A stretch of DNA of 64,000 nucleotides. It comes from Amphiscolops sp. MND2022 (lineage: Eukaryota). Below are positions 1 to 52,515 of this stretch, piece by piece. Each line of letters opens with the position of its first letter. The first letter of the stretch is position 1. The notes beneath the pieces were generated by a model, which was given only the letters and a program-made list of their open reading frames with translations, did no database searches and was not told where the DNA came from. The position numbers and the translations under genes were made by a program. The DNA lies in contig OZ076409.1 of the NCBI GenBank assembly GCA_964187785.1, positions 1,178,001 to 1,242,000 of the forward strand, written 5' to 3'.

Positions 1-178
1 TTGTTTTGAAGTGTTCCTCACATCCGCCAGCATCAGGATGAGTTAAGGCAGCTAATTTTTTGTAATTACGCTTGATATCCTCAACGTCTGCGTCATCCTT
101 TACGAGAAGAAATCTCATACGGTGTGAACGGACGTTGGATGAGTTTTTTTTTGTTTCAGCTCCCTAATAATTTTTTCC
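1..178 (-). repeat. Partial second copy of J-domain gene 2 (runs off window start)
   Basis: 1-178 is near-identical to 3186-3363 and includes the LTHPDAGG codons. Confidence 0.9.
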
Positions 179-657
179 CAAAACAGCGTAAGAACAATTC
201 CAGCTCTTGCGCAACGGAAGATCCAGAAAATTAAGGCCATAAGAAACAAAATTTGCATGGATAATGAAGTATCTGCTAAGCATTGATCCAAGGGAAGCAC
301 GACATCTTGTAACTTAACCTTGGGAGGCCAAGGTATTCGAATTGAAGAGTTGCCAAGTATAGGATAATTTTCAGTATCTCCGAACAATACAGGGTAATCA
401 ATACATTGTAGTAGTATGACTGATAATAATATAACGAAAATGAACTGACACAAGGTGAAAAGTTCAGTCGTCGCAATACATAAAAACCCATTTCGCTGAT
501 GATAGAGGTATACTCGACGAAAGAAATCATCAAGATTTTCAACATGATGCCACGACTTCGCAATATCTGCAAAATAGGTCATATGGTCGTCACCAGGTAG
601 AGCCCCGGTGGTTTCATCCTCAGGGTAAGTGTCCAGCCGCTGATACTTGGTTCCCAT
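115..657 (-). pseudogene. ATG9: ATG9 N-terminal fragment (~160 aa) fused in frame to 20 aa of J-gene 2
   Basis: WHHVENLDDFFRRVYLYHQRNGF...CIDYPVLF matches the metazoan ATG9A N-terminus (WHHIENLDLFFSRVY...HQKNGF...CVDYDILF). Homology breaks at 178/179, after which the ORF ends EKIIRELKQKKTHPTSVHTV, as does ORF 3300-3692 (one residue differs). Confidence 0.85.
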
Positions 658-1966
658 TTCGAAGAGGTATCAATGCAAACAATCACATCCCCATTGCAAT
701 CTGAAACAGAACTATAGTTAAGAAGAAGAGATGCATTAACCTTCGGGATGTGGCAGTACAAATGACTTTCTATCATTGATTCCAGAACAAAGTAAATAGT
801 ATTTAAAAAATTGACACAGAAGAAAGGCAAGTGAGGATTGCAGAGTTATAATAATTAATCGATGCTTGCAATAAAGCCAGCCAACGCGTTTATAACATGC
901 TTGTTTTCGCAATTTAGCAAACCAACTAGCGTTTCTTCAATGTTTTGATTTTGAAGCTCCTTAATGAAACTCCTTCGGTGTTCTTGGTATGAGACACAGG
1001 AAAAAAAGAAATGTGCAGTATCATAGACAACTTTACAATAGGGAACTTTCCTAGGATATGGTGCAAGCATTTTCATGATGCTGTTTCTTACTTTAAGCCC
1101 TGAGTAATTTGAGTACATAAGACCTTGCTTCATTTCTCGTTGCCATAAGTGGGTGGGCGGAAATAGGTCGGAAGAAAATCAGAGTTAGTCCTCAGGTCGA
1201 CATACCAATTTTTGGAAGGGATCGAAACAACTTGGATCGAAATTTTTATAACGTAGTCAGATATGTTCACATACCCCTAGTGCCCTGAATGCAGGAGCGA
1301 AGCGAAGCGGAGCGACGTGCCATATGGCCATGCCTCAATGTTGCTACTTGGCAAAGGGAGCAAAGCGACCGAGCCATACATCAAATACGATAAAATTCGA
1401 CCGCATGCCATTCGATCCCTGCAATTCGATCAAAAGGTTCGACCTCTGTCCTGTAACGTCCTCAATACGAAAACGTGTTTATAGTAGAATTAATTCTATG
1501 TCCATATAGAAGAAATGTTTATTTGAATTTATGAATGTATTCAATGTGAGATATAGCTCTGGGAATTTCGACAATAGGCGAAAAGCAAATGACCAACTTC
1601 TCATATCGCTTGAATACCCTTTATCTTTATGATAGTCTGGCGAAGTCCGCAGATATCTGAAGGTTTTTATATTTTCTCAATACAGTCCGTCGAAACCCGA
1701 CGGTTTCTTACTTACTTTGGATACCTTACTGTCGAACCCCGACAGTTGGTTAACTTAGGATTGTCGATCCCCGACAACCCTTATTCGAATATGTCTGATA
1801 ACAATAATTTGTTTCTCATCGTAAATCTGTCCGAACGTGTGACGTTTATTCATTTTTAATTTTTCCAAAATTCTTTATATAGGTTTCCTATATTGCCCTC
1901 CTCTATAAGAGAGGTTATTCGCCGCTTAGAAGAAATAAACAAGCAAACATTAAAACACGCAAATCA

Positions 1967-2758
1967 TTAGTCTTTGCTGTTGTTTTTAAAACTGAGAAAC
2001 TCCTCTGCCGCCTCACATCCCTCAGCTTCGTATCGGAGTCTTGCCTCGGGGTCACTTAGTATCCGATGTGCCCTCTGAAGCCGAAAAAACACGTCGTAGG
2101 AGCCTCCATGATCTGGGTTGCAGAACAGGCTGAGTTTTTTAAATCTTTTTGCAATGGTCTCGACTGAAGCATTGGATGACACCATAAGTTGGTCGTACAG
2201 CGTCAGCTTGTCGCCCATTTTGAAGGTTTCTCTGGTTTCCAGTTCACTTTCGAGACCATTGACAGCTTCCCCCTGCAATTGCAGCTCCTCCACCAATATT
2301 TGTTCTTGACTGCGACTCTCCTCTATTGCAGTTATCTCTGCAGCATAGTCAGCTTCAATGCTGTCCACTTGTCGCCCCAATTTCTTCGACGTTTCCTTGT
2401 ACTCAGTCAAGGATTGTTGCCGCTGATTTGCTGCCTCCTTCCAGAGATGTAGTTGGCCGTCACTGATGTCTGCTTTCTTCTGCCAACTGAGGATCTCAGC
2501 TTTGAGAGCATCCAGTTGATAAACAACAGATTGCCGTTCCGTTATCAGTTCAGCATTTTTGTTTCGCAGTACTGACAGTCCTTCGTCGTCAATCTCAGCT
2601 CTTCTAACCAGCGTCACTGGATAGAGGGTGTCAACTGCCGCAACTTTCCGAGTTTTGCTGACAAGGCCTTCCACCCGGAACACTCCATAAGGCATCTGAG
2701 ACTTCACCACAAAAACCTCAGGCAGGTAGTAAACGATGTCCCCAGCTGAAGGATGCAT
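1967..2758 (-). CDS. J-domain protein 1: N-terminal domain + coiled coil + C-terminal J domain (NPD instead of HPD), 263 aa
   Basis: Intact ORF. LYDQLMVSSNASVETIAKRFKKLSLFCNPDHGGS..FFRLQRAHRILSDPEARLRYE is a J-domain pattern, preceded by a heptad-rich middle region. Confidence 0.8.
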   Translation of the reverse strand: MHPSAGDIVYYLPEVFVVKSQMPYGVFRVEGLVSKTRKVAAVDTLYPVTLVRRAEIDDEGLSVLRNKNAELITERQSVVYQLDALKAEILSWQKKADISDGQLHLWKEAANQRQQSLTEYKETSKKLGRQVDSIEADYAAEITAIEESRSQEQILVEELQLQGEAVNGLESELETRETFKMGDKLTLYDQLMVSSNASVETIAKRFKKLSLFCNPDHGGSYDVFFRLQRAHRILSDPEARLRYEAEGCEAAEEFLSFKNNSKD

Positions 2759-3072
2759 GCTTAAACACCAAAATCAGCACCACAATTGAGTATAAATGTA
2801 TAGTTACTGCACCTAAAACAATTGAGACGGTGCAGAGCGATGCCCGCTAGACATGGAATTTGTCGAAGTCGACATGTTCATTATCAAATGATTCAATCAA
2901 CAGGTGACTCTCACCTTGTCTCTTTTTTTTTTATAGTGAACACACTTTAGTTACCCCCTTTTTAAGTGATTCCCACCTAGAGAACTTTGTGTCAGTTTTT
3001 TTATTATGATGAATATTATTTTTAAAAAATCAAAAGTACGAAAAGAAATATAAAGTTAACAGTTCATTTCAG

Positions 3073-3779
3073 TTAGTCACTCCAATTAGCTCTCCGGGTT
3101 AACTCTTCTTCTGTCCTCTCTAACTTGAATGTGTCGTATATGTTTCTTGCATTCTGGTTACTCACTATAAGATACGCCCTATGGATTGTTTTGAAGTGTT
3201 CCTCACATCCGCCAGCATCAGGATGAGTTAAGGCAGCTAATTTTTTGTAATTACGCTTGATATCCTCAACGTCTGCGTCATCCTTTACGAGAAGAAATCT
3301 CATACGGTGTGAACGGACGTTGGATGAGGTTTTTTTTGTTTCAGCTCCCTAATAATTTTTTCCGTTACTCTGGCTTTGTTTCTCTCGCTCTTCACAAGTA
3401 TCTTTTGGCACTCGAGATCTTCCCCCAGCCTTCGTATTTTTTCTCGCTGCACTCTGTTGTCGAACTCAAGTTCGAGAATTTTCCTCCGCTGCTCTTCTTG
3501 CTCCCCGTTGATATGCTTCTCCCCAGACTGGAGTTGTTCCTCCAACGATTCAATTTTGAATATCGCCATATCCAGTTCCTGTCGGAGACCGATCAGTTGT
3601 GGATTAGTAACATCTGCCCTGTTTTTGATGTTGGCGGCAGCGAGCGTGTCTTTGGTGGCAACTTTCCGATGCCTGGAAATACATCCCTGCACTCTGTAAA
3701 GTCCTGGAGATACCTACGTTTTCATTTGATACAGTTCAGGAAGGTAGTAGACGTATTCATTTACTCGTCCTCCTCCCAT
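3073..3779 (-). pseudogene. J-domain protein 2, paralog of 1967-2758, with intact HPD but disrupted frame
   Basis: ATG at 3779 gives MGGGRVNEYVYYLPELYQMKT*VSPGLYRVQGCISRHRKVA (TAG 3714-3716), paralogous to IVYYLPEVFVVKSQMPYGVFRVEGLVSKTRKVA. Frame break near 3300-3340, then IKRNYKKLAALTHPDAGG. Confidence 0.8.
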
Positions 3780-4016
3780 CTCTGAACAAAAAAATTCAAC
3801 CAGCATGTTTTCAATTTCAATTTGGAATATTTATACGCTGCTAATTTACACTGCGTTTTCATGTGCATTTGATTGCTCTACTTCAGCATGCTCTCCCTTA
3901 AGACTCTTGATTTCAGCAAGGTACTTATTATACTCGTAAAACGGGTGGAAAGGTTGTAAAGCGAACCTGGTGGTTGTTCCTAGCTTCTTAAGTTGTATCA
4001 TGAAAAAAAAATTGTA

Positions 4017-4632
4017 TTAAAATCTGAAAAGCGTACCGCAAAGCATCAAAGTCAACATAGATAGCGCGATTTCTCTCGCTATCCACCATACAAACAACGT
4101 TTCTCTTTTTACGTTCTCAAAACACTGGAGAACGCTCCAGCTGAAACACAGCTGTCTACTTGGCAAATTCAGATGAAAGTATTCTGCATGGCCGTATTCT
4201 CCTCGTGGACCTAAGTAAACTTCCCGTCCTGTGACTTTAGTTCGACTGTGCTTCAATGCCCTTGCTCTGCTACTCCTCCACAGATCCTCCATCGTGAAAA
4301 GTCCGTTTTCTTTGAGCCCTACGATCTCGTGGGGTCATTTCACGTCTAGTATCATGGAAAAATGGTGTTGGTTCCACTTTGGCTCTTTCTATTCTTTTCC
4401 CGTATGTTATCCACGTACCGTTTGCCAACTTCAGTAAATTGGGATAAATAGGGTTGCATTCAGTCATTGTGTAGTTAGTAAAGAAAACTAGTGTAATCGG
4501 ATGCATGTATCTTATTACAGAGTTTCCGTCTCCACCTAGGCGTACTGGTACCTCTTCAGTGCAAAAGGTGTCTTCGATCACCATTACTTCCATTTTTGCG
4601 GATCGATGCATCGATCCCACCCTTGTCACCAC
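4017..4632 (-). pseudogene. Unidentified ORF region after the PBS (partly duplicated at ~5268-5589)
   Basis: Overlapping 120-aa and 91-aa ORFs with no recognisable motif. Confidence 0.35.
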
Positions 4633-5569
4633 TGTAACGTCCTCAATACGAAAACGTGGTTATAAAAGAATTCATTCTATGTCCAGATAGAAGAAAAGTT
4701 TATTTGAATTAGTGAATGTATTCAATGTGAGATATAGCTCTAGGAATTTTGACAATAGGCGAAAAGCAAATGGCCAACTTCTTATATCGCTTAAATACCC
4801 TTTGTCTTTATGATAGTCTGGCGAAGTCCGCCGATATCTGAACGTTTTTATGTTTTCTCAATACAGTCCGTCGAAACCCGACGGTTTCTTACTTACTTTG
4901 GATATGTCTTCGAATATGTCTGATAACAAAAATTTGTTTCTCATCGTAAATCTGTCCGAACGTTTGACGTTTATGCATTTTTAATTTTTCCAAAATTCTT
5001 TATATAGGTTTCCTATATTGCCCTCCTCTATAAGAGAGGTTATTCGCCGCTTAGAAGAAATAAACAAGCAAACATTAAAACACGCAAATCATTAGTCTTT
5101 GCTGTTGTTTGTAAAACTGAGAAACTCCTCTGCCGCCTCACATCCCTCAGCTTCGTATCGGAGTCTTGCCTCGGGGTCACTTAGTATCCGATGTGCCCTC
5201 TGAAGCCGAACAAACACGTTGTAGGAGCCTCCATGATCTGGGTTGCAGAACAGGCTGCAACTACTTCTTTGAGCCCTACGATCTCGTGGGGTCATTTCAC
5301 GTCTAGTATCATGGAAAAATGGTGTTGGTTCCACTTTGGCTCTTTCTATTCTTTTCCCGTATGTTATCCACGTACCGTTTGCCAACTTCAGTAAATTGGG
5401 ATAAATAGGGTTGCATTCAGTCATTGTGTAGTTAGTAAAGAAAACTAGTGTAATCGGATGCATGTATCTTATTACAGAGTTTCCGTCTCCACCTAGGCGT
5501 ACTGGTACCTCTTCAGTGCAAAAGGTGTCTTCGATCACCATTACTTCCATTTTTGCGGATCGATGCATC

Positions 5570-5588
5570 GATCCCACCCTTGTCACCA
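5570..5588 (-). promoter_or_regulatory. Primer-binding site, tRNA-Leu type
   Basis: TGGTGACAAGGGTGGGATC begins 1 nt after the LTR end and resembles the complement of tRNA-Leu 3' ends (TGGTGTCAGGAGTGGGATT / TGGTGGCAGCGGTGGGATT). Confidence 0.75.
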
Positions 5589-6326
5589 CTGTAACGTCCT
5601 CAATACGAAAACGTGGTTATAAAAGAATTCATTCTATGTCCAGATAGAAGAAAAGTTTATTTGAATTAGTGAATGTATTCAATGTGAGATATAGCTCTAG
5701 GAATTTTGACAATAGGCGAAAAGCAAATGGCCAACTTCTTATATCGCTTAAATACCCTTTGTCTTTATGATAGTCTGGCGAAGTCCGCCGATATCTGAAC
5801 GTTTTTATGTTTTCTCAATACAGTCCGTCGAAACCCGACGGTTTCTTACTTACTTTGGATATCTTACTGTCGAACCCCGACAGTTGGTTAACCTAGGATT
5901 GTCGATCCCCGACAACCCTTATTCGAATATGTCTGATAACAATAATTTGATTCTCATCGTAAATCTGTCCGAACGTTTGACGTTTAATCGTTTTTAGTTT
6001 TTCCAAAACTCCTTTTATAGGTTTCTTATATTTCTTTCGACCAGAAAAATTCGACCTATTTACATCCACCAGCCATAAGTGCCTGCAATACACACCCACC
6101 TCCTTCTTAGAAGTACTGACTGAGGATTGTCTAGCATATTGTATATATATTACCTTAGTTTCATCAGGGTCACGATTTACAATTGTAAGTTTGTGTACCA
6201 AAAATAATCTCACCATAGTAATATGTTGGGGTATGATTGCTAAACTACCTGGGTTTAAAATATCTGTACTTCTAGCAGTTGAATGTAAAAACAATAATAC
6301 TTGATTAGTGTAGAGTAGACAAGGAG

Positions 6327-6889: not shown

Positions 6890-9800
6890 GCCAAGTATTG
6901 CTTAAAACACTAACTACGTGTTTCGATACTTGTTAGTTTCTTATCCCAAAGATAGCTTTGTGAACACTATAACACATTTTGTCCAGAGATGTCATATTTT
7001 GATGCAACCAATGGTAATACAGTACGTGACACGTGGTTCGACATATGAATCAAAGATACGTACAGCGTAAAATGGATTTAATCCTTGCGTTATAAGTATA
7101 CTAGTTTCTTTCCAGAAAATAATCATTGAGGCAGAGATAATGGGAGCATGTGTTTTGAAACTCAAATCGCGTTCAAACCATAAGCCAAGTATTTTACTTC
7201 CCTCAACAAGTTTTTAGTCGGACTGAAATACTTCTTTTGAGAAATTTACATGTTCAGTTTGGTCTTTATTCAGCACCAGCTTCCATTTGTATGTGTAGTT
7301 TTTCGCCTTTTCTAAAGATGTGCTTAGGCTTTCTTTGCTTGAAAGAGAAGTACTGTCATCTGCATACTTATATGTGTAGTCCGCATCTTGGAGGAAGCCC
7401 TTCATATTGAATTCAAACAAAAGTGGTGACAGTACAGCCCCTTGAGGTAAACTATTAGAAAGGACAAATGACATGTCGATATAATCATTGACTTGAATAC
7501 TGACATTCCAATTTGATAAAAAATCTTTTTATAGCAGCTAACATTTAGGCCACTGTTTATTAGCTTGCTTAGCAATAAAGTTTGATCTACGGAATCAAAA
7601 ACTTCCTCTAGATCATATACTGGTGCTATTGGTAAGTTTTTCATTGCTAAGATATCATCATATAATTTGTATAAGTAGTGCAAAGTTGATTTGCCTGGCT
7701 GAAAACCAAATTGTTGTTCATCAATGTCGAGGATATCTGATGATATTAGATTTCTGGCTATCACTCGTTCAACTACTTTTCTTAAATGTGATGTAAGTGA
7801 AATAGGTCTCCATGAAGATGGATTAGAATATTCAGTTTTGCCAGATGTTTTCAAGAATTTGACTATGGTTTTATCAAATGGCCAAATCCCCATAAAGAAT
7901 GCACTGTTTATCAAGTGCAAACATATGCTAATGGTGTTAAATTTGAATTTCTTTAATAGTTTAGGGTGAAGGCCATAAGGATCCACTCCCTTGGTCTTTG
8001 TCTTCATTTTCTTCATGGCTTGTTTAAGTTCATTCATTGCAATACGCATGTTTAGATCATTCTTGGCCTTCTTCTTGTAATAAATCCCAACGGTGTGAGA
8101 TAACTTCTTTTTCACTTCTACTTTTGTTTTTTCATAAAAATTTGTTTTTTCAATTTGTTTACCAGTCAGGTGTGCGCCTTCGAAGAATGTCGTTGAAAGA
8201 GCGCAGCTTTATGACAATCCTTTTCCAGTGTCGTACCATTGTGACGAAGTACTCCTATGATATTTAAGTCCATTGAACCATTGAATTTCCAGATATTATC
8301 GAAAAAGGTTTTTGAGTTTCCCTCATTCTTTTGTATGATGCAATTTTGCGCCCAACGGGTAATATTTATTTTCATTTCCTTTTTGAATTCGATTTTAGCC
8401 ATTTCATCAATGTTTCTGTTTTTCGGGTTACATTGGAGTCTATATTTTTTGCTACTTCTTTCAATTGTTTTGATAAGTGAGTCAATTTTTTGCTCCAGTA
8501 TGGTTTAGAATATTTACAAAAGTGTTTTCCGTGGAATCGAATTTTCACAAACTCCTCTCACTTGGCCCATAAATGTTAGGAGAGCTTTCGTAGGTGCTTC
8601 CGTTATGATGCTATCAATGTTTTCCACCATAATATTGTCCAGTTGTATACTTATTTCTTCCCAATTTGCCATTTTGTAGTTTAGCACACACCGTTTTGGA
8701 TTATCATTTATCACAGGAATATCTATATCAAATAGAACAGGCCAATGACTTTGCTCTGGAGCACCAGAGAAGAATTCGATATCTTCGATCACTCGTGCAT
8801 TGCATACCAGATTAGAGCAATTTTGTTCAGTGATGCAAAAATCGACTATGCTGCTACCTTTTTTGCTTGCTGGGACAAAAGTGGGCTGGTGAGGGCTTAT
8901 TATAGAAAGACTATTGTCGGCACAGTTGTCGGCGAGTAAATTACCATATTTAATTTCTAATTTATCACCCCATAGCGGATGCCTCGAATTCCAATCTCTG
9001 AAGATTTTTTATCCGGTTTTATTTTCATTTTTGCATAACGTATACGCTTCAGCTCAGCCAGAACATCTGTGGCGCTTTCGATGTTTTCAGTGATTCCTAA
9101 ATGTACGTTTATTGATCCCAGCAAAAATGACCTCTTTTCAATGGAGAGTGCTGCAAAACTTCTCTGGGTGTTATTTTCACTTCATAGGAGTTTAATAGTG
9201 TGTGTATGAGCAAGGAGCAACCAAGTTTGTCCGAATGGGCGCGGTAGATGTCGTAGTTACCAAAACCCTAAAGTTTTCTATGACTTTCAGAGACCGTAAT
9301 AACTTTTATGTTGTTGTCGTTTATATATTTATCCATAGCAATACACGAGTGAGGGGAGAGAACAGCAGTTTTTATAGTCATAGCCAAGAGAAATGGTTTC
9401 ATCACGAGTTGACTCAGTTCAACCTTTTCCACATTTCCTGGTACATTTCGAAGAATTCATCAAATGTTGTGTGATCGTTGCCGCAGTTCACACAGTAGAT
9501 TTCATTTGGTGGGATACAATATTTCGCATGTTCATGTTCTTCCTGGCACACATATTCTTTATGACGGTTTTTGGGTGCTCGTAGCCACAGATGGCACACC
9601 ACGATTTCGTTTTTACAAATTTTGGAAACATGGCTACCACATTGTTGACAGTTGAAACATTGAATAGTCCGTTTGGTGATACGATTTAGGTCCATCTTGA
9701 AGTACATATATTCTAGCATAATTCCATTTTGGAGATAATTGTTAAACGTGCAGTCTTTCAGGAAAACTAGTTCCACTAAAGGTATGGCCTTTCCGCCTTT

Positions 9801-10540
9801 GATATATCGGATCACTTGAATTTCTTCCTCTTTTTCGCCAGCTAATTCATTCTTGATGTCATCAGTGGAAATTTCAAGCGGCACATATCACCACTTGTTT
9901 CTCACTCTAGTGCAACAGTCTTTGTTGGTAAATAATAGTACAATCTTCCCAAGCTTGTTGATAGAAAAGAAATCCAGTTTGATACCGGGGAAATGAGTAT
10001 ATAGTTTAGTAATACAATGGAAGGAAACATATCATCATCTATTGTGCAAGAAATGTATAGCGTTTGTTTTTCAGGATATTTACGATTATCAGTGCTAGTT
10101 TCATTTACATTAGTATTGGTTTTTCTGAAACTTTGGATGCACAAAAAGGTTTATTGGTATTAAACGAGGTTACTAATCTTTTATATCTTCAATGTCCTTC
10201 TTCATTTCTAGATTGCTAAACACACACTTGAGACGATCATCTACATTGTCCAGACACCAACCACAGAACCACTTGCAGGCGTCGATCTCTCCGATTACTT
10301 TTAATTGCTTCAAGGACAAACTCGAACAATCTTCATGAAACCATATAGAGCACATGTCACACATTATTGCTAATAGACCATTTAGGACCTCCACATCACA
10401 CTTCTTGCAAACGCTTTCCGATGCCTCGTCAATTTTTGTATATTCTGCATTGTGATTCTCCCCGTCATCTTCGGCCGATCTCTTAAATCCACTAGGGCTT
10501 CTTCTTATCGGCACACCACCATATCTCATCTATTTAATAA
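6890..10540 (-). mobile_element. Degraded near-full-length LINE (I/Jockey/Nimb-like): ORF1 with PHD + Zn knuckles, APE endonuclease, RT
   Basis: PHD CKKC..CDMCSIWFHEDC..CGWC (10173-10529); QCFNCQQCGSHVSKIC and CVNCGNDH; DWNSRHPLWGD (~8960-9000); WRPISLTS, QFGFQPGKST, LPQGAVLSP, YADD. Many frameshifts. Confidence 0.85.
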
Positions 10541-14944: not shown

Positions 14945-15845
14945 GGGCGTCCCATAATAGCGTCAAATTTTGACACGTTGAATTCCTAACGTCGAATCGT
15001 CAGAGTCGAAGAACAACGTCAAATCTAGTCGAACAACCAATGTTGAATCTTTGTCGAAATTAGGTCGAATTTCAGTCGAATTATTCCTGTTTCTTTCAGA
15101 TTAAAATGGCTGATAATACCTCCACTAAATACCCCAAACAAGGCTTTCCCCACATAATATGATGTCATATACGGTGTATGCACGCTCGCCCTCACCGTCG
15201 CAAAGACCAGCTCCCACTACGATCGCTCCGCGATATCTGTTCCCGCTTGGTCTTTGCTCCTGTTCGACCTCGCTCAGCGAGATGGAAACATAAGCGGCCC
15301 CAAGAGACTGCGGGGCACTTCAAGAAATAGGGGCATATCAAACGGCCAAAAACATTGTTAATTGCGACGCATATGTGTTTTTGGTGATTTACCACTTGCA
15401 TCGACGCAATAACTTTGACAAAAGTTTTTCGACAATGTGACTTCGACGCTAGGACGAAGCTTCAAATGCGACGATAGGAATTCGACCGTATTATGGTTCC
15501 CTGACTGGTGGCAGGAGAAATCCTTCCGCAAAATATCCTTGTGGTGAATGTGGACATGAGTGTAAAGTAGGAACCCTCGCATGCCATATAAGTGGTATTT
15601 GGTATCACGACAACACTTATTTAGGTGGGGGATTTCGCAAATTTGATTGGACAAATACACAATCCAAATGATAGTACTTATAAACAAAATAGCGGCAACT
15701 GAACATTACGATAACGTAGTCAGCTATGTTCACATACTCCTAGTGCCCAAAACGCATGAGCGAAGCGGAGCGACGTGCCATGTGGCCATGCCTCATGGTT
15801 GCTACTTGGCGAAGAGAGCAAAGCGACCGAGCCATACAACATATA
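14945..15845. repeat. Composite MITE-derived repeat with one GTCGAA-rich arm and two shared cores
   Basis: 15155-15335 matches 6470-6650; 15711-15842 matches 1248-1386. No second arm or TSD found. Confidence 0.6.
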
Positions 15846-16119
15846 TGCTAACCTCTTTAATTGAATCAAGTTCCATACATATTGGCTGTAACAGCACTGA
15901 AAGCTAGTAATTCTGTTGTTTGAGACCTATTTTGCATACAACTAAAATGCTAACTTATTCACATGAATCAAGTTTCATACATTCTGGCTGTAACAGCACT
16001 AAAAGATAGTAATTTGAATTCTGCTTTTTGAGACCTATTTTGTATTTTCGGCTGTATGAATAGCACCATACGGGTGTTCCATCTTCATTACTAAATGCTC
16101 TCAAGAAACGTAAAAATCT

Positions 16120-25373: not shown

Positions 25374-28300
25374 TGTGACATACGAAGGTCACAACCCAAA
25401 AAGAGCAACAGTGTTATTGTCAAACAAACTCACAAACAACTGAATTAGCTACTGCTCTATTTATGTTTATACGATACGATGTAAAAGATATGATACTTTT
25501 GCCATCATGTATTTGAGATAGATCCAATACAGCTGAAGAGATATTACTGTACCTAGCCTGTTTTAAACCTAGATTTAGTGATCTTAACATGGCGCAGTAA
25601 GCAAGATTTTCTTTTTACCAAATTTGTCCACCTCTTTTACCCCTTCTACCCTATCAACATACAACTATACCAAAATGGCCGTAGCAACCAAAATACAACT
25701 GCCATATTTAGAAGACACCGGACTAGACGGTAAGAAACTATACACACCCAAAGAATGGACCGAAAGACTCCGGCACTACCTAAAAAGAATCTACAATATC
25801 GACATTAAACCGATATTAACGGATGACACGGTACCAACCGGAGATCCCTGGAATACAAAAGAACCTGAAATCAGACAAGATTTTATCTGGGGCGCCGGAC
25901 CGTCAGCAATTGAAATTATCACAGAAGGCGAATTCAACACGGACCCAGACACAATCACAACCGATAAACTAATACAACTATTCAAAGAGTACTACATGCC
26001 GAAAATAAATACATATCACAGCCGCGGAGATTTCTTCTGGGCCAAACAAGAAGAAAACGAGACACCAGAAGAACACTGGAAAAAGCTGATAACACTCGAA
26101 AAGAACTGCGAATTCAAAGATATTAAAAAGGAAGACCTATTAATATCGAAATTCATCACGAGCATAACCGATAAAAAAACTTCGGGAGAAGATTTTCCGC
26201 GAAAAGACCCTCAATCTGAAAACCACCGTGAAACTTATCACACAAAACAGCTACGACCGCCGACACAAACATTCTATCATACCAGCTGCACTGGCAAAAG
26301 ATAAAGAAATCAAAGAACAACCAGTCCAAAAAATACAACCAAAAATAAAAACCGATAAATACGGTGGCAAAACAATACAAAAGAAAAACAACTGCGGATT
26401 TTGTGGACAACAAAATTTGAACCCACAACACACATGTCCGGCAAAAAACGCGAAATGCAACAGTTGCCAGAAAATGGGCCACTTCGCACGAAAATGCCGC
26501 AGAAAACAAAACAAAAACGACCAAAGAAGAATCAACTATCTGGAAGAAACAAGTTCAGAAGAAGAAGAAAGCGAACCCGAAGAAATCCGCCAAATAACAC
26601 AAATAAACAAAATACTGTCCGACAACAACAACCACTACGGTGTCGAAATGATAATAAACGGGAAAAAGCAAAAATTTATAATCGACACCGAAACCCCGGT
26701 CACCATCATACCATATGACCAGAAGATACACAACACAAAAAAAAGCAAACCAATGAAAGAAAGATACCAGGACGTAAACAAAAACGAAATCAAATTCATG
26801 GGAAAAACATGGGTAACCGCGGAATATAACGGGACATCAGCCAAATTACCGATGCTGATTACCAAAAGAAATGATATCACACCACAACGGGGAGTAAATT
26901 GGCTAAAACAACTGCCAATAACAATAAATAAAATCTTATTGGACAACGAAACCAGCCAATCAGAAAGCATATACAAAAAGTACCACAAACTCTTTAACAC
27001 CAACCATACAATAAAAGACGCCGAAGTCAAAATACAGATAAAACCGGGATGTTACCCAAAACAACAAAAAGCACGACCGATACCCTACCATCTGCAAGAA
27101 GACGTAAAAAACGAACTGAACCGAATAATAGAATCCGGGCACCTAGAAAGACTAGAAACAATCGACGAAGATTGCTTTGTATCACCCGTAGAAATTACGG
27201 TAAAGAAAGACAAATCCGTCAAAATCGCACTAGACGCCAGAAAACTGAACGACAGCTACATTAAGAAAAGACCACATATGCCGAACATGGATGAACTACT
27301 CAACCAAATATCCGCGGAACTATCAAAAAACGATACCGACCCAGTTTGGATATCCGTAATAGACTTGGACTATGCATACGGCCAAATGAAACTAGCGCCC
27401 GAAACAAGCAAACACTGCAATTTTGCAATCACAGGAGAAAAAATCAATGGATATTACCGTTTCCGAAAAGGATTTCACGGCCCAGCAGACATACCCACAA
27501 TATTTCAAGAGAAGAAAGACCGCACGCTCGGACACGAAACACCCTTATGGCTAGATGACATCATAGTGGTCACACGAGGCACAAAAGAGGAACACACCCA
27601 AAAACTAGAATCAGTACTCACAAAACTCGAAAACGAAGGCTACAAGGCGAGCAAGAAAAAGTCAAAATTCTACTGAAAAGAGACAGTCTGGCTGGGACAC
27701 ACTGTTTCCCAGGACGGAATAAGACCGAACAAAGAAAAGACAGAAGCTATAAACAAACTAAACCCACCAACCAACACAAAAACACTCAAATCCGTTTTGG
27801 GGGCGATCCAATACTTTGCAAAATTCATACCAAACTTATCCAAAAAAAACTGACAATATGAGACAACTACTCAAGAAAAACACGAAATGGGAGTGGACAG
27901 AAGAACGAAACACCGATTTTAACAAAATCAAGAAAGAACTAACTTCACAACCATGCCTCGCACATTACAACGGGAACAAAGAAAATATTGTCACCACTGA
28001 CGCTTGCGGTGCCGGTATCGGAATAGCAATATGGCAGAAGCAAAGCAACGGAGATTTAAAGCAAATACCTTTCGCCAGCCGATACCTTAACGACGCAGAA
28101 AAAAATATTCAGTCGGAGAACTAGAACTACTGGCGGTAGTATGGGGATTAGAACAGTTCAGATTTCACCTGTACGGAAAACAAGTTCAACTATTCTCCAA
28201 CCACCAAGCTCTGGAACCGCATTTGAAAAAGAATAAATCAAATAAACAATATAGTGCCCGACTAACCCGGTGGCTTGACAGACTCAATCATTTCGACATC

Positions 28301-31112
28301 ACATTAAAATACACCGCGGGGAAAGAAATCAAATTCACGGACTTTATTAGTCGAAATCCCACCGAAATGGCGGAACCGGAAGAAAATTACGAAGAAGAAT
28401 TCGTGATTGACGCCATCGCGCAGCTTCCAACGGCAAATTACCGCATCGGCCGGATTTTCAACCAATCAGATCAGATCACTCCAATACGACTGTCATGCAT
28501 GATACGCGACGCACTCAGACAGGTACGCGCTGCAACAAAACAAACAATCATTCAAACTTTCAAACGACCGCTAATTACAATAACCATACCGTGACAGACA
28601 ATTATCATTTGAAATTAGAGAAGAACCAGACAATAGACAACAACAACAATTAAGATATGCAAGAACCGGAGAGATACCCCAGAGATGAAGAGGGGAGATT
28701 AAAAAACCATAGGGCGCGGACGACACAATCATGAAAATCATAGAAAGAAAAGATAATTCGCCGGAAACCAGAGATCTAGTGAGACAACGGATCGCATTAA
28801 CAAAACCCGGGAACATGCGCCATCACTACAACAAGAAACTAGAAAGACAAATTCTAGTGCCGAGAAGAAGAAGAACGAAAAAAAGTAAAACGAATCGATC
28901 TCCGACTAAAGCGGAAAGAAGAACATCGAGTAACCCACATCGGCGGGGGATATTTCAAAAACTTTGGTGACCAACCGTCACAGGAGCACCAAGAACACGG
29001 CATATCGGCAAAAACACCAATGGAGACCAATAGAGAGTCCGAGTCGACGGTCTCCTCCACCCCCGAAGAGCCAGTCACAACCCAAGAACCTGGCGCATAC
29101 CCGGCCATCCCGGTACAAGAATTTAGAGACGGGCCAATCGAGGAAATCGCTGTACGCTACGTACGCATCAACCGCGTAATAGAAAACAAAGCCATAAGGA
29201 ACAAGAAGCAAGAAGACAATGTTAGAGCGGCAGAAATAGACTTCATGCTTGATCTTGAAACTTTAATAAAAAAACTGCCGCAGACCCGGACTTGGTTGAG
29301 CTACAATGCTGCATCGAAGACAATAATCTCAGCCAGGCCCCAGAAGCCTACAAACAAATTATAAAGAGGCTAACCCACCGCTGGGGAATTACCATGGTCG
29401 ACGACAGAATTATCGTCCCAAGAAGCCTCAGATACGCAGCACTGAACGCACTCCATTCCGGACATCCCGGAATCAACAAGATGTGTGGCAGCCATATTCC
29501 GGTGGCCGAACATGCGGGCCGACATTGAGAAAAAACCAAAGACCTGCTCCGCCTACCTAAATGCCGGTAAGAATTTGAAATGTCAAATATCCAGTACCGA
29601 AAAAAAAACAAAAATAGAACCGCCGGAAAACCCAGGCGAAGAGATCCAAATGGATTTCACCGCAAACCTAAACAGTAAACATTTTGAACACTTCCCCTTC
29701 ATCCTAATTGCCGTCGATAGCAATAGCCGATGGCCAGTACCAAAAATTTGCAAAAATACGAATCATGAATCCGTAATAACATTCCTAAAGGAATATACCA
29801 ATATTTACGGCGTCCTGAAATCAATCAAAACGGATAAGGGAAGTGCATTCATATCAAAAGAGTTTAGTAAATATTGTAATGAAAACAATCTTACCCGTAA
29901 ATACGGTACAGCAAATTTACATATTGGAACGGGATTGGCTGAGAGAACCATCCAATCTCTGAAGAATTTAATAAAAGCCAACCTAGAAGACGGAACCAAT
30001 CTTAGAAATAATTTAGACAAAGCACTATATGTGCTTAGATATACAGCCCATTCTGAACTTCAAAAAACACCATTCGAACTCCATTTTGGACAAAAACCCA
30101 GAACGAAATTAACCAACCTAAAAAATGTTATTTCAGCCGACTCGAAAGACTTGTCCTTGTACATAACCCGAAGCTCTACGGGTGAAATCAAGTAAAAATT
30201 AAAGTAATACACAGAAAACTAATATCCAACCCATTACCATTTCAGAACAATACAACACCGACGAAACGGATAAACACCCGACAGACGACTACGGAGCAAC
30301 CGTCTTGCTCCAAATCAACCGAACCACAAACAACTTGTGTCTACAGAAGGAAAGAACCACCAAAGCCGAACAACCACGAAAACAGCGAAGATTGGATCCG
30401 AAGGAAAGACCAACCGAGAAATGAGAAGGGACAATTCACTTCTCCACAGAAAAACACCGGCAACATGACGGACTTAGACCCGAGCAACGTCTCAGATGAC
30501 GAATTTAACTGCTACAACAACAGTGAAGACAGGCCAATAAGCGTGAATGTGGACGATGAACTACAAATCCACCCGAAAGAAACGAGACTATCGCCGGAGA
30601 CAGGTATAAACCACGACCACATAATAACTAAACCAACAACGCCCGTAAGAAGGTCTAGAAGACTACCATTTCCAAAACAAATCGAAAAACTAGGCGGTAT
30701 CCCTAACCAAACCAATAATAACCGTAAAAGAATTAAACATAACCATAATTTGTTACAGGAAAGACGAACAACACCACCACAAAACAGTGAAGAAGAGGAA
30801 AACCGTAACATACGGACAAAAGAAGAAGTCAACTGTATTATACGGAACCAACACCCCAAAACCCCCAAATCACAAACCCACATGAAGAGGGGGGAATGTG
30901 ACATACGAAGGTCACAACCCAAAAAGAGCAACAGTGTTGTTGTCAAACAAACTCACAAACAACTGAATTAGCTACTGCTCTATTTATGTTCATACGATAC
31001 GATGTAGAAGATATGATACTCTTGCCATTATGTATTTGAGACAGATCCAATACAGCTGAAGAGATATTACTGTACCTAGCCTGTTTTAAACCTAGATTTA
31101 GTGATCTTAACA
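25374..31112 (+). mobile_element. Ty3/Gypsy LTR retrotransposon (Mag-like), decayed
   Basis: 216-bp TG...CA LTRs at 25374-25589 and 30897-31112 (6 mismatches counted), TSD GGAAG, PBS TGGCGCAGTAAGCA (tRNA-Ser type), PPT before the 3' LTR. Confidence 0.95.
25675..30195 (+). pseudogene. gag-pol: Gag with two Cys/His boxes, protease, RT, RNase H, integrase
   Basis: CGFCG...HTCPAKNAKCNSCQKMGHFARKC; IIDTE; LDARKLN, WLDD; TTDACGAGIG; HSGHPG, QMDF, KTDKGSAF, GLAERTIQ. Multiple stops and frameshifts. Confidence 0.9.
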
Positions 31113-40715: not shown

Positions 40716-41094
40716 GGTGCAACTTCAATTCGTCGAACATTCAAATCGTCGAAAAATGAAAAACTATTCAATTCGTCGAAAGAATTCCATATCAGCGATT
40801 ATTTTCATTTGGTTATAATTTGTGGCGATTAGCATATTTGTTGTATGGCTCGGTCGCTTCGCTCCCTTCGACAAGTAGCAATATTGAGGCATGGCCATAT
40901 GGCACGTCGCTCCGCTTCGCTTCGCTCCTGCATTTAGGGCACTAGGAGTATGTGAACATATCTGACTACGTTATCGTAATTTTGAATGCTCGAATTTGAT
41001 TGGCCGAAATCAATTTATTCCATTATGTCATACCATCCTCGCTAAATTAATACGTGTTCGACGAATTGAATGTTCGACGAATTGAACAGTCCCC
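40716..41094. mobile_element. MULE-like MITE
   Basis: 9-bp TSD CTAAACCAC (40707-40715, 41095-41103); arms of TTCAATTCGTCGAA units; core shared with 1248-1386. Confidence 0.85.
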
Positions 41095-42979: not shown

Positions 42980-42988
42980 TATCATATA

Positions 42989-45900
42989 ATGCTCCCCACT
43001 CCATTTACAGTCACTACTGACAAAAGACAAAATCGATCTCTTATACAAGATGTAACACCTTTTCTACAAAACATTATCTTTCAGTACACTAACCCACTTC
43101 CATTTGAAACAGAACCCCATATATTACATACTATTCCATTAGTACGAGAACATTGTGATTCTTACCTATATTATATCCACTATAAAACACTTGATATTAC
43201 ACCATCACAAACTCCTTTTCAAGTTATTTTTAACCCTGTTAAAGGAATAAATTCTGGAACATTTTATAGAACTATACACCCACAGAATATTACACTTTCT
43301 ATACAAGATGTTTTTCACACATACATGCAAAAACTCATTGAATTCAATGAACACCAAGACACACCACTTTATCGTCCTTCTCATTCACAAGAACTAAAAC
43401 ACCTATCTGAATATTTCGAGGTCCCCGATCTTGACACGAAAGTTCAAAGACATGATAACCCTCATTATTGGCTACAACGAGATATATTACAAATAAAACA
43501 TTTCCAGTTCAAATTCTTTACAAAAATTATCCTTACAGATGATACTATACCTCAAGTCAAAATTTTTACGCATTTCTTATTAAAGTTCCTTAGATTTAAC
43601 TATCAACTACTTTGGGAACAAAAAGACCAACAAGCTTATATTAACTTCCCACAAGCACTAACACATATAGAACTCCTACCATACATCATAAACAATCAAA
43701 ACAAACATTTACATTACATAGATCTTACTTCATTAAATGTTACACATTTTGAACAAATAAACCTAGATCACAACTTTGTACTTGAACATTCTGAAACTTC
43801 AGATAACAGACCTTATACTACATCTGATACTTCTCATACAACAACTCATAAAGAACAAACCTCTAATACCCAACCTTCATATATCAGACAACAATCAGAA
43901 CAATCAGAACAAACAGAACAAGAATCACCAACGCAAGAAACACTTGTTAACCTTTTTCAAAATCCTGATTCTCCTTCGAGACAACCACAATTACACGTCT
44001 CTGATATACAACTCCCAAATCCTTCTGAAACAAATACAATTCACATTACATCAGAACATTCTGAAGAAACAGTACAAAATACACGAAGTTTTACAATAAC
44101 GGATGATTCAAATCTTATAATCATTCCTACCCACACTATCACCCAAAACGAAATTACAAACCAAAATCAAGACAACACTTCAAATACTAACCCAGACAAA
44201 ACCTCTGTTTTATCTACATCTAATACTACTATTACACACCCCTCTCACACACAAATACTATCTCCTCGAAATTATAATCCACCTTCTGTTCCACCTCAAT
44301 TCTCAACTCAGATAAATACCCATAACTCTCCACAACAAAGCTCTTCAAATACACACTCTATTACACAGAACAATAATACAGTACATTTTCAAACACCAAC
44401 TCCACCATCATCTTCTGAAATACAATTTTTAACTTATACTCCAGCTCAAACCAATTCAGTACAAACTACACAGCCTACCTTAAACATTAACACAATTCAT
44501 TCCAATCCCTCTTCTAAATATACCACAGCCAGACAACTTTCTCGACCTCCTTTACAACCTATATTAACTAATCCAATATCATACAATCTTACCAGTACTA
44601 ATCCAAGTCATACACAACAATCTCAGATAAACTATAACACACACAACCAATTAAACACTCTTTCTTCCCAACATACATCCAATACAATCACTCCTACATT
44701 ACAAACTTCCCAATTTCATATACCAAATCCCCCTTCGACAACAATTAGAACTAACCCTCACCTTCATAGTACTTCAACTACTTCTTTACCTAATATTTCC
44801 AATAACCCCACATACAATACAACACCTCCATCTACTATGTCTCATAACACTATGTCACACCCAACATATATTAACTCTTCTACTTCTATATCAGAACCCA
44901 TTAAACCTTTTGATGGACTCGATCACAACTATACACCTGAAGAATATTTACAACATATTGAGGCACGTGTTACATTTTCCTTAGGTTTACAACCTACATT
45001 GGAACATGAATATAAATTTTGGCACGCCCGTCGCATGGCTTTTATACAATGCTCTTTAACAGGTACAGCACTAAGCTGGTACATTCGTTTAAACGACACT
45101 TATAAACAAGATTGGCACGCTTTTGTACAAGCTTTCAAAAAACAATTTTCCTCACAAAAGAACGCTTACTATGCTCAAGTTGAAGCCCTTAATTTAACAA
45201 AGAAAGACAATGAAACAGTACGTCATTTTGCACTCAAAGTTCAACAACTGGTTGAAAAAAAGGCTGTTGTAATGAGAATGCATCTACTATAAACCTTAAA
45301 TGTAATGAACTCTTTACAAAAGGACTTCCAAAAAACCTTAAAGATTTTGCAAATAAAAGACAAGTAAAACACACCTCCACTGTCTTAGAACCTTCAATTC
45401 CTTTTCATACTTTGGTAAAACTTGTTGACGCCGAAGATATTGCAAACGACAAAATCAGAACACACGATCTTGCACTTGAAATCAATAATATTACAAAACA
45501 ATTGAACACTCAAACTCTAGATCACCCATCTCAAGAACAACTTATGTATACACAACCCAAAGACCCAAATAACAAAAATAAACCTGCATATAAAAAATAT
45601 TGCTCATATTGTCATAGAACAAATCACTCCATTTCTGCTTGTTTCAAAAAACAACGAGATGACGAAGATTAACGAGAAGCATATGCTCGATCAAAATCTC
45701 CACAAAAATCATTCGTTCAGTACTTTCGTTCTCCTTCCAATGACAGAACAAAATACTATGATAATCGATACCGAAGTCGAAGCACTTCACGAGACAACTC
45801 TTATAACCAAAAATATTCACAAAACCGATACCGTTCTACATCTCGAGATAGAGACAAATTTCGTTATGACAAAAGTACTACTCCTCCACACTACTCCAGA

Positions 45901-46128
45901 TCAAGATATGACACATACAAACGTGATTCTCGATCTTACCGTTCTCCTTACAGATCTTCTTATAGATCCCCATATAGACAAAACTCTCGTCCTAGATACA
46001 GATCACGCTCTTATTCAAGAGATAACAAATTCACCAAATACACAAATTCATATAGACCACCTTCAAGACCAAGAGACTCTCGATTTTCTAGATCTCGCTC
46101 ACACTCAAACTCCAGAAATAAAATCAAT
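42989..46128 (+). pseudogene. gag: gag: long N-terminal extension, capsid, CCHC knuckle, RS-rich segment
   Basis: IKPFDG...IQCSLTGTALSWY capsid motif; frameshift in the A-run near 45255; CSYCHRTNHSISAC; one TAA at 45670-45672, then an open frame into pol. Confidence 0.85.
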
Positions 46129-49100
46129 ATGATACAACAACAAGAGCAAACTGACCCTATCAAATTTGAAGTACACATGTATCACCCAACAGCAATGGCA
46201 AATGCTGTCACACCTACAAGTTGGTTTTATACTCTATATGTACACACCCCATCAAGTATAGTACAAAGAGACAACCCATCTAGACTAGAAATTGCATTCC
46301 TCCTAGATAGCGGTGCTTCCATTTCTGTACTCAATTATCCAACATACATAACTCTTACAAAACTTCTCGATATCAGACCAAATCACACCTCTGATGTTGG
46401 ACCAACTCGAAATTCCAAAACACTAACTGTTGCAAACCAAACTGAAGTTCCTATTTTACATTATGCAAATGTAATTCTCAACACCACCATTGACGAAAAC
46501 TCTCGTTACTTTTCAGTACCCTTCGCAGTAGCTGATATCAAATACAACATCCTTGGCACACCATTCTTTGAAGACAATATACAAAACATAAATATTCAAG
46601 ACTTTACACTCGAATTTAAATACCAATCAACAACACACCCAAATTATACAAAATTCACAACACTCCTATCTAAAGATTATCCATACTTCTCTTACATTTA
46701 TAGAATTAACTCAAAAACTCAGATACGTCTAAAACCCAAATCTTCCAAAATTGCACACTTTCCGATCAAAAATTATCATAATCTTCATTTTACAACCACA
46801 CCACAAAACCACTTCTTTCCTTCAGTACCTCATACCTATTTTGCTACCAAATTCCGTTCAAACTTCAATTTCATTGAAGTATTCACAGACGACAAACCAG
46901 ATATTTGTGCAACTATTATTCAGAACACTTCAAAACATATTGCAACCCTACCTACAGGACATATTGGATACATTGAAGTTCCAATTACTAATGAAAAACC
47001 TAATTTCTTCCAAGTCAACGACATTAATACTTTAATACACAATGTTACCCATACTTATCATCCTGATATTACTGAACCACTTCCACAGACCAATTATATT
47101 GTACAATATGATCCTACAACCCCTCCTCCACAATTCTCTCTACATCAAATTTATATGACAAATAACGACATTCCAAACCAAACTTCTCCTTTATATAACG
47201 TTCAGCCTACTTCTCATACTTCCGAAAAACGCATTTTCCCTTCTCTACCATATACTTCTGAAAATCTGAAATTTATTAATAAATTTAACTTCCAATTTTC
47301 TGACCTTACAGATTCAGAATACATTACTCTTTGCAATATGTTACTCAAATATAAAACATGTTATGCAACCCATAAAAACGATGTTGGAAAAATTTCAACA
47401 CCCTTTCGTATAAGACTTAAACCAAATGCTCAACTTATGACACAACGTCCTTCCAAAGTCCCTATTCACTACCGAGACAAACTTAATGTACTTCTTATAG
47501 AACTCGAAAAATATAACATTATCAAACAAATTGGTTCTTCTCCTCAAGACAAACCTGTTTATGGCACAACTTATTTAAATCCTCTTATTATAATCCCCAA
47601 GGGAGATACAATTAAATGTGTATTAGACGCTCGACATCTTAACTCCAATACAGAACAATCTGATGAATCTTGGCCTATTGAACCTCTTGCTCCACAACTA
47701 GCACGCGCAAACAAAAAGTACAAATCTGCTATTGACCTTATGTATGCCTATGCACATACACCTCTTGACGAAGATACTATAAAACTTACCAGTTTCTCCT
47801 CCGGAGACAAACTTTTCTCTTTTATCCGAGGCTTCTATGGTCTCAAAGGACTACCAAACTTCTTTACAAAACAAATGTCTACTTTCTTTAAAACTCTTAT
47901 AGAACAAGGTTTCGCTCTTGTCTACATTGACGATATATTACTTTTATCTGATTCTAAAGAACACATGTTTCAACTCATAGAACAATTACACATTTTTAGT
48001 ACAAAAACTAATCTTAAACTAGCCCCTGAAAAATCCTTTTTCATGCTTCTTAAAGTCAAATTCCTTGGACATGAAATTGGTTACAATACAATTAAACCAA
48101 TCCACTCAAAAATTGCAGCTATTCATAAGATCCCTTCTCCAACTGGCAAAGTTGCCCTAATGAGTTTCATTGGCGCACTCAATTTTTACACCAAATTTAT
48201 TGAAAAACTACATATTAACCTCAAACCGTTTTACGATCTTTTACATGAAAACACTCCTTGGAAATGGACAGACGAACGCGAAAGTCTATTCCAAAAACTT
48301 AAAATGTCTCTCACTTCTGAAACAGAATTAACAATACCAAATACAAAGCATCCATTTTTCATTACAGTTGACGCTTCCCTTATTGGATTAGGCGCTGTCT
48401 TATTCCAATTAAATGAACAAAACAAAAAGAAAGTCATATCGTACAACTCTCGTATACTTAATCCACAAGAACAAAAACTCTCCACACTTGATAGAGAACT
48501 TCTTGGTATAGTACACGCACTTCAAATCTATGAATTTCTCATCATAGGTTCTCCCCATCCAATACATATTTTTACTGATCACAAACCTTTATTACATTGT
48601 TTTACAAAGAAAGGTAATCTCAGTCCTCGTTTCTACAGAGCTCAAATGCAACTGACAAAATTTTCAAAACTCAAAATAATTCACACCCCTGGAAAAAATC
48701 TCTCTGTTGCCGATATGTTGAGTCGCTCATTCACAAAAGCTGAATTACAACTTAACCAATTAAAACATAAACACCTCCCACCACAAATCGATTTTGCACT
48801 TTTACAAGATAACACTCTCAAACCTGTACATTACTTAATAAAACATGAAGAAATTCTACCTCATCAAAAACATGACTCTCATCCAATTCTTGCTGATTAT
48901 GGTACAGATCAATTCTCTATTCGTATCAATGATAAAGGAAATGACATTGTTGTCAAACCGTTACAATCCTTCTCATTCAAATCCATAACTCCTTTCCAAA
49001 CTAAGTTCAGGACACCTACCAAAAAGAACAACAAAACCCTTCATCAACAATCTCTCTTACTTAATGATACTGACGTTACAAGTGATGACGAAGATCATAT

Positions 49101-51183: not shown

Positions 51184-51273
51184 TCTAGTCATTCTATCTG
51201 TTGGCTCACTCAAAACTAGTCACTCCGGTTGAATGAATGAAATATAACCCATAACAAGTTATCTCAAAGATAA

Positions 51274-52515
51274 CCTGTTGAAAACACTTCAACAACCCTG
51301 GATTCTTCCTCTGATATATCTCCATCAGCTCCAAGTATTCCTTCCCCACCTGAATCTTCAGTATCTAGCACCACAAACTCTAGTAATGTAACTCCTACTA
51401 CTCCTTCTAAAAGACCAAGATCATACATCTCTGAAACCACCTCTTCTTCACTTCTTCACAGACCACCTATAACCGAAATTCCTATAAACACTCGTCCCCA
51501 ACAAACTCCTATTAACACTCCTATTATACACATACCAAACCCTGAAAGTGTTGAACAATACGTAAATTACAAACATCCTACAGCTATCAAAACTGTTAGA
51601 CTACAACCTCAACTTAATCTAGTACAAATCCCTGACACTGAATATACAAAATTACCTTCACTGAAACTACCATCAGAACTTAGTACTACTTCTTCAAAAC
51701 TTTATCCACCACTAAAACCTCTTCGAAAACCTTCTACATCACTCTCAAATCTTTTAGACAATAATACTTCAGACTACGCTCCATCACGAGACACAAGCTC
51801 ACTTTTTGTACCTACTCATAGATATAATCTTCGTGACCTCCCTTCACGTAGACTTAGTACAGACACTTCAACACTCAATTTTTCCGCTCTTTCTAGCAAT
51901 TCTGCATTACGACTTGTAAGACAACACGCTCAACCATTGTCCTCTGACACACCATCTTCAGAACTCTTTCAATCTCCTTATTTTACTTCTGGTTTTGAAA
52001 CCGCTTCATTACTCTCATCTAACCCACAGACTGCATTTCTATCAGGAGATCTCTTTTCACAAGTAGTAATCCCTACTCCTGTTCCTGCACATATTAGACT
52101 GCCCGAATACTATACTGCAGAACACTCTAGACCTCCAACTCCAAATTTTGCTGACTATCCACTTAGAGTCGATGGTATAACCATCTACGACCCACAAAAC
52201 GATCTCCGATTTCCAATTCTTGCAGAACGTTTTATTAACAACAACGACCTCTTATCTCACAAACGCAAAGAAACAGAACTAAAACGTCTCCAGACATCAA
52301 ATCTAGAACTTAAATTTGAAGTCAAAGTTAAATTTCAAGAATTAAATCCACACCCAATATTTCACGTTTCTAAGATAGAACATAAAACCTCTCCTGCTCC
52401 TTTCGAAGTAGTACATATTGAATTTGAACGCGATCTTAATATACCCACTATCACATATGGCAACAGTGTCTTCTGTAACCCATACTTCGGTCTCAAATAT
52501 ACAACATCTTCTTAA
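51274..52515 (+). pseudogene. Ser/Thr/Pro-rich open frame (~413 codons, no ATG), probable env leader
   Basis: Stop-free by hand translation; overlaps the env signal-peptide frame near 52500. Confidence 0.55.

Follow-up and report, generated by a model that had tools for sequence, protein, structure and literature searches.

What kind of element carries two J-domain genes between long terminal repeats (LTRs) and has neither gag nor pol? This question is raised by a locus in a 64,000-nucleotide stretch (hereafter the window; G000:C1:1178001-1242000) of the 1.07-Gb assembly of Amphiscolops sp. MND2022, in which an insertion lying on the minus strand combines LTRs, a primer-binding site and a polypurine tract with two Hsp40-type genes, here called J1 and J2. 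The original prediction, made from the sequence of the window, took the insertion for a satellite retroelement that is mobilised in trans and brings its own Hsp70 adaptor. We find instead that the window copy is a dead, one-off internal deletion of an autonomous Ty3/gypsy family. The explanation that best covers all observations, and that we consider probable, is an autonomous, env-bearing Ty3/gypsy element with J-domain accessory genes that likely serve as Hsp70 adaptors, from which the window copy derives by deletion.

The structural parts of the insertion proved real (Table 1). Its outer LTRs are identical at 414 of 442 aligned columns, the primer-binding site matches a host tRNA-Leu(TAG) gene plus CCA as had been anticipated, and a polypurine tract adjoins the 3' LTR. 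J1 and J2 are, as described earlier, tandem intronless paralogs (~30% identical), each consisting of an N-terminal domain with a VYYLPE motif (the N-domain), a long helix and a C-terminal J domain recognized by the Pfam DnaJ model (PF00226, E 4e-10 and 4e-13). The open reading frame (ORF) that had been left as unknown is a remnant of env, comprising the 3' third of that gene by mapping to full-length copies, with a weak match of its own to PF24664.

A search of the genome with the LTR returned 42 matches, several of them paired ~10 kb apart, and revealed the autonomous layout of this family (family 1), a Ty3/gypsy element of ~10.5 kb with the gene order gag-pol-env-J2-J1 and with reverse transcriptase (RT)-RNase H ahead of integrase (IN) in pol. 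All of gag, RT, IN, env, J2 and J1 occur in order at 6 of 18 mapped family-1 loci, and J1 is present at each of the 10 mapped family-1 loci that have RT. A second family (family 2), whose LTR pairs are 93-97% identical, has the same layout, complete and in order at 7 of 16 loci. Exact 4-bp target-site duplications flank two family-1 and two family-2 loci, and 3 of 4 bases agree at two more. The env genes of full-length family-2 copies match PF24664 (E 1e-18 and 2e-17), indicating homology to viral fusogens; compared with PDB sequences, the family env gave no match and is not assigned to the F or gB type.

The window's internal region follows env-J2-J1 of the full-length copies in order, at 93% identity. 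In the window copy the primer site (reference position ~460) is joined directly to env (7386), and gag and pol are missing. This junction was seen at no other mapped locus, and a pattern search for an LTR end with the 18-nt primer form (below) likewise found it here only. The window J2 is interrupted early by a premature stop and again by a frameshift near 3330, while other copies in the family have open J2 frames of 251 amino acids. A programmed frameshift in the A-run of J2 was considered and ruled out, as other copies read open through this run. The changes private to the window J1 are neutral (10 nonsynonymous, 3 synonymous, ratio 0.98).

These features bear directly on the idea of a satellite lineage resembling terminal-repeat retrotransposons in miniature (TRIM) or large retrotransposon derivatives (LARD), which would have lost gag-pol, kept its J genes and been mobilised in trans. 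Such a lineage would account for the LTRs, primer site and polypurine tract that the window copy retains, and for a second gag/pol-less element with the structure LTR-env-J2-J1-LTR in family 2 (G000:C4:41215343). However, the two deletions differ in their breakpoints and in family, the window junction exists at a single locus, and both window J genes are damaged, with neutral private changes in J1. Packaging signals usually lie in the leader and gag, and both of these are gone. The proposed search for further copies and an autonomous partner succeeded in its second half, as autonomous full-length copies exist, and failed in its first, as no amplified deleted unit was found among the mapped loci. 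Given that both J genes are also present in full-length copies with gag-pol-env, we regard a satellite lineage as very improbable; a single deletion derivative, which the original prediction had named as the outcome that would overturn it, is what the unique deletion and the damaged J genes amount to.

The primer site suggests how the deletion may have arisen. Family-1 and family-2 copies usually pair with the tRNA over just 12-13 nt. An LTR end followed by the 18-nt form (exact or with one mismatch) was found by pattern search in eight places: two in the window, one in a sister family to which the 18-nt site is native, and five at other family-1 or family-2 loci. In five of the six family-1/2 loci with the 18-nt form the leader is missing directly after the 18th base, and one such locus is an independent family-2 deletion with the structure LTR-primer-env-J2-J1-LTR. 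Retroviral plus-strand strong-stop DNA stops after 18 nt of the primer, at the methylated A58. We infer that each of the 18-nt-junction deletions may represent a single faulty second-strand-transfer event, in which plus-strand DNA made during copying of a full-length RNA, and ending in the 18-nt primer copy, would have landed within env. An unequal LTR crossover and a 3188-bp tandem duplication would have followed in the window copy. Read this way, the short native primer site and the recurrent 18-nt junctions would preserve, as a natural record, cases in which second strand transfer went wrong.

The LTRs retain traces compatible with this history. Three LTR copies lie inside the window and a fourth directly beyond its edge. 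At its diagnostic sites the middle LTR resembles the 3' LTR as far as position 82, a stretch in which the 3' LTR has one private site, and the 5' LTR from position 223, with a 56-bp deletion at the switch, a pattern that suggests an origin by unequal crossover between LTRs. The insertion target was a MITE-like (miniature inverted-repeat transposable element-like) repeat. Compared with empty copies of this repeat, the window locus has exactly four extra bases, and its target-site duplication is degenerate, with 2 of 4 bases in agreement. The repeat belongs to a family with a 9-bp terminal direct repeat; a related core occurs in the window at 15711-15851 and 40829-40985, and one copy sits within a family-1 LTR on C12.

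Comparison of the two families shows how long the J genes have been retained. Families 1 and 2 are 82% identical in RT, ~50% in env, 56% in J2 and 41% in J1, so that the J ORFs diverge faster than pol, and because J1 and J2 are more distant from one another than either is from its counterpart in the other family, the J1/J2 duplication predates the family split. Synonymous sites are saturated between families in every gene (proportion of synonymous differences, pS, 0.79-0.90), with lower nonsynonymous proportions (pN) in J2 (pN 0.27, pS 0.86), J1 (pN 0.39, pS 0.79) and env (pN 0.33, pS 0.83). In family 1, all six genes show close to neutral ratios for variants found in a single copy (nonsynonymous-to-synonymous rate ratio, dN/dS, 0.84-1.11). 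Variants shared between copies give a dN/dS of 0.53 for J1 (p 4e-4) and 0.50 for J2 (p 3e-3), next to 0.43 for RT, 0.35 for IN and 0.41 for env (range across gag, RT, IN and env 0.35-0.57). The J1 signal holds after removal of CpG sites and restriction to six loci (0.27-0.50, p ~0.003). The HPD motif is intact in 55 of the 80 J-domain copies read, tandem duplicates counted in. Judged by these substitution patterns, the J genes are native accessory genes of the element, long kept and under past purifying selection; the earlier claim that they belong to an LTR retroelement that has long retained them stands, with dN/dS below 1 in shared variants and saturated pS between families.

Two other accounts of the J genes can be weighed against this record. 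If they were captured retrocopies of host DnaJ genes riding as functionless passengers, their lack of introns and the weak within-family signal in J2 would be expected. The persistence of frames and HPD over saturated synonymous sites in three lineages would not, and no close host parent appeared among 16 host J domains; the more distant J1/J2-type matches examined are decayed element relics or tandem J pairs. The between-family pN/pS values and the counts of J genes downstream of RT (below) largely refute this account, which we find hardly credible. The second account has the window copy domesticated, for example to serve as a J gene or to regulate the adjacent single-copy host gene ATG9. The J1 frame is open in both tandem copies, and the 3' LTR has the orientation of ATG9 and lies ~0.8 kb upstream of the start of that gene. 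Yet the HPD motif is altered, the private changes are neutral, and equally long open J frames occur in other decayed copies, making domestication very unlikely.

J genes extend beyond these two families. The next-nearest RTs (43-48% identical) belong to young families with LTR pairs 98-100% identical, long open frames for gag, pol and the env position, and a native 18-nt tRNA-Leu site. All four sister families examined have, in the same place as the J genes, a fourth ORF (ORF4), 337-373 codons long, which runs from an N-terminal domain through a coiled-coil-like middle to an HPD J domain at the C-terminus; HPD is intact in all four ORF4s aligned, and PF00226 scores above cut-off in three and below it in one. 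The third ORF of these families, called env by its position and size alone, has no similarity to family-2 env and no fusogen match. Among the RT matches listed, a J match lies within 12 kb downstream for at least 25 of 31 at ≥54% identity, at least 28 of 33 at 43-48% identity and none of 86 at 40-42% identity; the one outgroup element read from the last group has a fourth ORF of another kind. At 20 further J loci, the J1/J2-type and ORF4-type genes belong to copies of the element, to relics or to tandem J pairs; host-type J genes were few and lack the N-domain. In a J-domain tree (in which row P0100 was windowed off-centre), J1/J2 and ORF4 form clades (99/99 and 100/100) that each stand apart from the 16 host J domains.

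A profile search with the N-domain returned 74 cluster representatives, and most of the 57 read resemble decayed copies (repeat-like rows P0103, P0123 and P0126 were left out of the reading). The combination of N-domain, coiled coil and HPD J domain is kept in five divergent proteins (P0073, P0100, P0112, P0118 and P0015). Of these, P0015 is placed with J2 and P0118 with J1; a 10,100-base contig is listed for both, a hint that the two-gene layout exists elsewhere. The viral contigs searched contained no relative, and in metagenome contigs all 38 loci matched the J domain only. A broader scenario, which we put forward tentatively, is that an env-bearing Ty3/gypsy clade captured a J domain once, kept it through env change and a gene duplication, relies on Hsp70 adaptors that it encodes itself and translates from spliced RNAs, and is present beyond this genome; its members would be 'complex' errantiviruses equipped with a chaperone accessory gene.

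Several results weigh against our interpretation and its extension to a clade. Uninterrupted gag, pol and env were found together in none of the family-1 and family-2 copies examined. The within-family signal of J2 is lost without CpG sites (0.63, p 0.11), at the six loci (0.54, p 0.2) and with both filters (0.89, p 0.57). A test of J1/J2 plus ORF4 monophyly (approximately unbiased test, p-AU 0.52) leaves a joint origin unrejected; their J domains align (hhalign 92.7%) and their N-domains do not. The RT clade of J carriers is weakly supported (67/66) in a tree of sequences from this genome only. AlphaFold models of the N-domain are of low confidence (predicted template modelling score, pTM, 0.27), and the structure search suggested earlier for identifying this domain yielded no structural match.

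What might the J proteins do? The J1 model comprises a low-confidence N-terminal stretch of 54 residues, a single helix of ~120 residues and a helical J fold. With the J domain at the C-terminus, J1, J2 and ORF4 lack the arrangement of canonical class A/B Hsp40s (N-terminal J domain, G/F region and peptide-binding domains), and DnaJ models match just the first ~75 positions, far under cut-offs. The N-domain has no Pfam match, gave nothing usable from ESM Atlas and, in a profile search of PDB, returned coiled coils and J domains only; its sequence pattern gives the impression of an SH3-like barrel. Each J protein would be a class-C-type J protein in which the N-domain grips a client, the HPD loop triggers Hsp70, and the coiled coil serves as a spacer or for oligomerization. 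As such, the J proteins would likely be cytosolic adaptors that direct host Hsp70 to a target of the element's choosing. No signal or membrane segment was seen by eye, which makes a role in the cytosol or nucleus likelier than Env folding in the endoplasmic reticulum; the J ORFs also have two unrelated env genes as neighbours. A T-rich tract plus AG closely precedes the start codons of J1 and J2 in both families, and one also precedes env; such tracts occur at ORF4 5' ends too, with no ATG close behind. They are candidate splice acceptors for each J ORF, which like env would be translated from spliced subgenomic RNAs. Extra ORFs of bdelloid rotifer retrotransposons (ORF3s) have been described as separate units on spliced messages (PMC5408684).

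Our best guess at the client, itself tentative, is the element's own Gag particle, during assembly or uncoating; a host silencing or defence complex ranks a little behind it. In one version of the latter, the J proteins would act on the host complex by having Hsp70 dismantle or block it, or would serve as decoys for host J proteins. Polyomavirus T antigens act on Rb complexes. The J domain of these antigens carries the HPD motif (PMC4836724), and a plant J protein, SILENZIO, works in transposon silencing (PMC8616336). The J ORFs also outpace pol in divergence between families, like arms-race genes, and adjoin env genes of two unrelated kinds. Against this stand the lack of any sign of positive selection within family 1, where dN/dS in shared variants is below 1, and an N-domain in which no chromatin- or RNA-binding domain was detected. 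We consider action on a host complex possible, if rather unlikely.

Table 1. Features of the insertion and its immediate surroundings, in window coordinates.
Feature	Position	Strand	Remarks
5' LTR	5590..6030	-	441 bp, TA...CA ends
3' LTR	1452..1892	-	441 bp
Chimeric middle LTR	4633..5017	-	by diagnostic sites, 5' part from 3' LTR and 3' part from 5' LTR
Primer-binding site	5571..5588	-	18/18 nt to host tRNA-Leu(TAG)+CCA; abuts env directly
Second primer-binding site copy, 18 nt	4614..4631	-	after middle LTR
Polypurine tract	1893..1904	-	next to 3' LTR
Polypurine tract, first tandem unit	5018..5029	-	next to middle LTR
env fragment, first (further-deleted) tandem unit	5265..5567	-	maps onto env of full-length copies
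J1 3' fragment, first tandem unit	5092..5257	-	maps to J1
env 3' remnant	3846..4610	-	PF24664 E 2e-5, below cut-off; maps to full-length env
J2 accessory gene	3073..3779	-	N-domain, coiled coil, J domain; broken
J1 accessory gene	1967..2758	-	open 263-aa frame; HPD motif altered
MITE-like repeat (insertion target), left part	1151..1451		repeat ~350 bp; intact copies at two other loci
MITE-like repeat, right part	6035..6071		9-bp direct repeat beyond both ends
ATG9 5' part, host gene	179..657	-	PF04109 E 6e-26; fused to J2 3' end by 3188-bp tandem duplication
Start of duplicated J2 3' end	1..178	-	duplicate runs on with J1 and LTR beyond window

The 3188-bp duplication (G000:C1 ~1172350-1178400) took in the J2 3' end, J1, an LTR, part of the MITE-like repeat and ~160 codons from the start of ATG9, and its joint shows microhomology of 5 nt; apart from this fragment, the only ATG9 copy found is an intact, intronless frame of 844 codons just beyond the window. 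Elsewhere in the window, 42980-57630 (+) holds another gypsy element with gag, a 1836-aa pol and an env matching PF24664 (E 6e-19), several unannotated ORFs at 51274-52515 and 55423-57630, an RT just 31% identical to that of the J family, and a strong C-over-G skew. An A-rich, decayed gypsy element with RT and a zinc knuckle occupies 25588-30971 (+), and a decayed non-LTR retrotransposon with endonuclease and RT fragments 7214-9887 (-). In other parts of the genome, four sister families (L143, L146, L147 and L151) have a PPRVYP-type proline-rich motif both in the ORF4 linker and at the C-terminus of the env-position ORF, ORF4-type J-domain fragments form a tandem array with a period of ~1.3 kb at G000:C12:54715757-54743077, and a young high-copy gypsy family (L150:4132-4977; G000:C6:35283132-35283977) has a 1610-aa pol and a 282-codon fourth ORF without Pfam match.

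Polyomaviruses and a phage are known to encode J domains of their own; we found no such report for a retroelement. Our literature search, in which most matches were judged from listings and which did not reach Repbase, subscription journals or bioRxiv supplements, returned no J-domain ORF of an LTR retroelement. The earlier suggestion of an undescribed class survives in part: the satellite class is not real, and what does exist, apparently undescribed so far, is a J-domain accessory gene in an env-bearing gypsy clade. A J gene kept across gypsy families, some of them recently active, would point to a chaperone-dependent step in replication or counter-defence and offer direct experimental access to it. 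A large share of the DnaJ matches in this genome comes from the J ORFs, which would inflate Hsp40 gene counts.

The window copy resembles TRIM and LARD elements in having LTRs, a primer site and a polypurine tract without gag-pol, and differs from them in occupying a single locus, in keeping env and J coding remnants, and in showing no amplification as a deleted unit. The full-length elements are closest to the env-carrying Ty3/gypsy 'ancient errantiviruses' (Chary and Hayashi, PMC13524379), with which they share the LTR-gag-pol-env-LTR layout, the domain order, a tRNA primer site (Leu among those reported) and an env with a viral fusion-protein match, and from which they differ in one or two extra J-domain ORFs after env. 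That survey covers 1512 env-carrying gypsy elements, for which gag, pol and env are the only ORFs annotated; 'DnaJ' and 'J domain' do not occur in its text, nor 'DnaJ' in the supplements searched. LTR retrotransposons of bdelloid rotifers (Rodriguez et al. 2017, PMC5408684) likewise have family-specific extra ORFs 3' of pol, some with coiled coils, and their cargo differs (env, GDSL esterase, DEDDy exonuclease, transmembrane or coiled-coil proteins); 'DnaJ' and 'chaperone' do not occur in that article. Finally, polyomavirus T antigens (PMC4836724), phage RB43 (PMC3486835) and the Jiv insertions of pestiviruses share with our elements the principle of a selfish element that supplies or captures a J-domain protein, and T antigens also keep the HPD motif. 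These differ in virus class and in architecture; the J domain here follows a coiled coil and is encoded by a retroelement ORF of its own.

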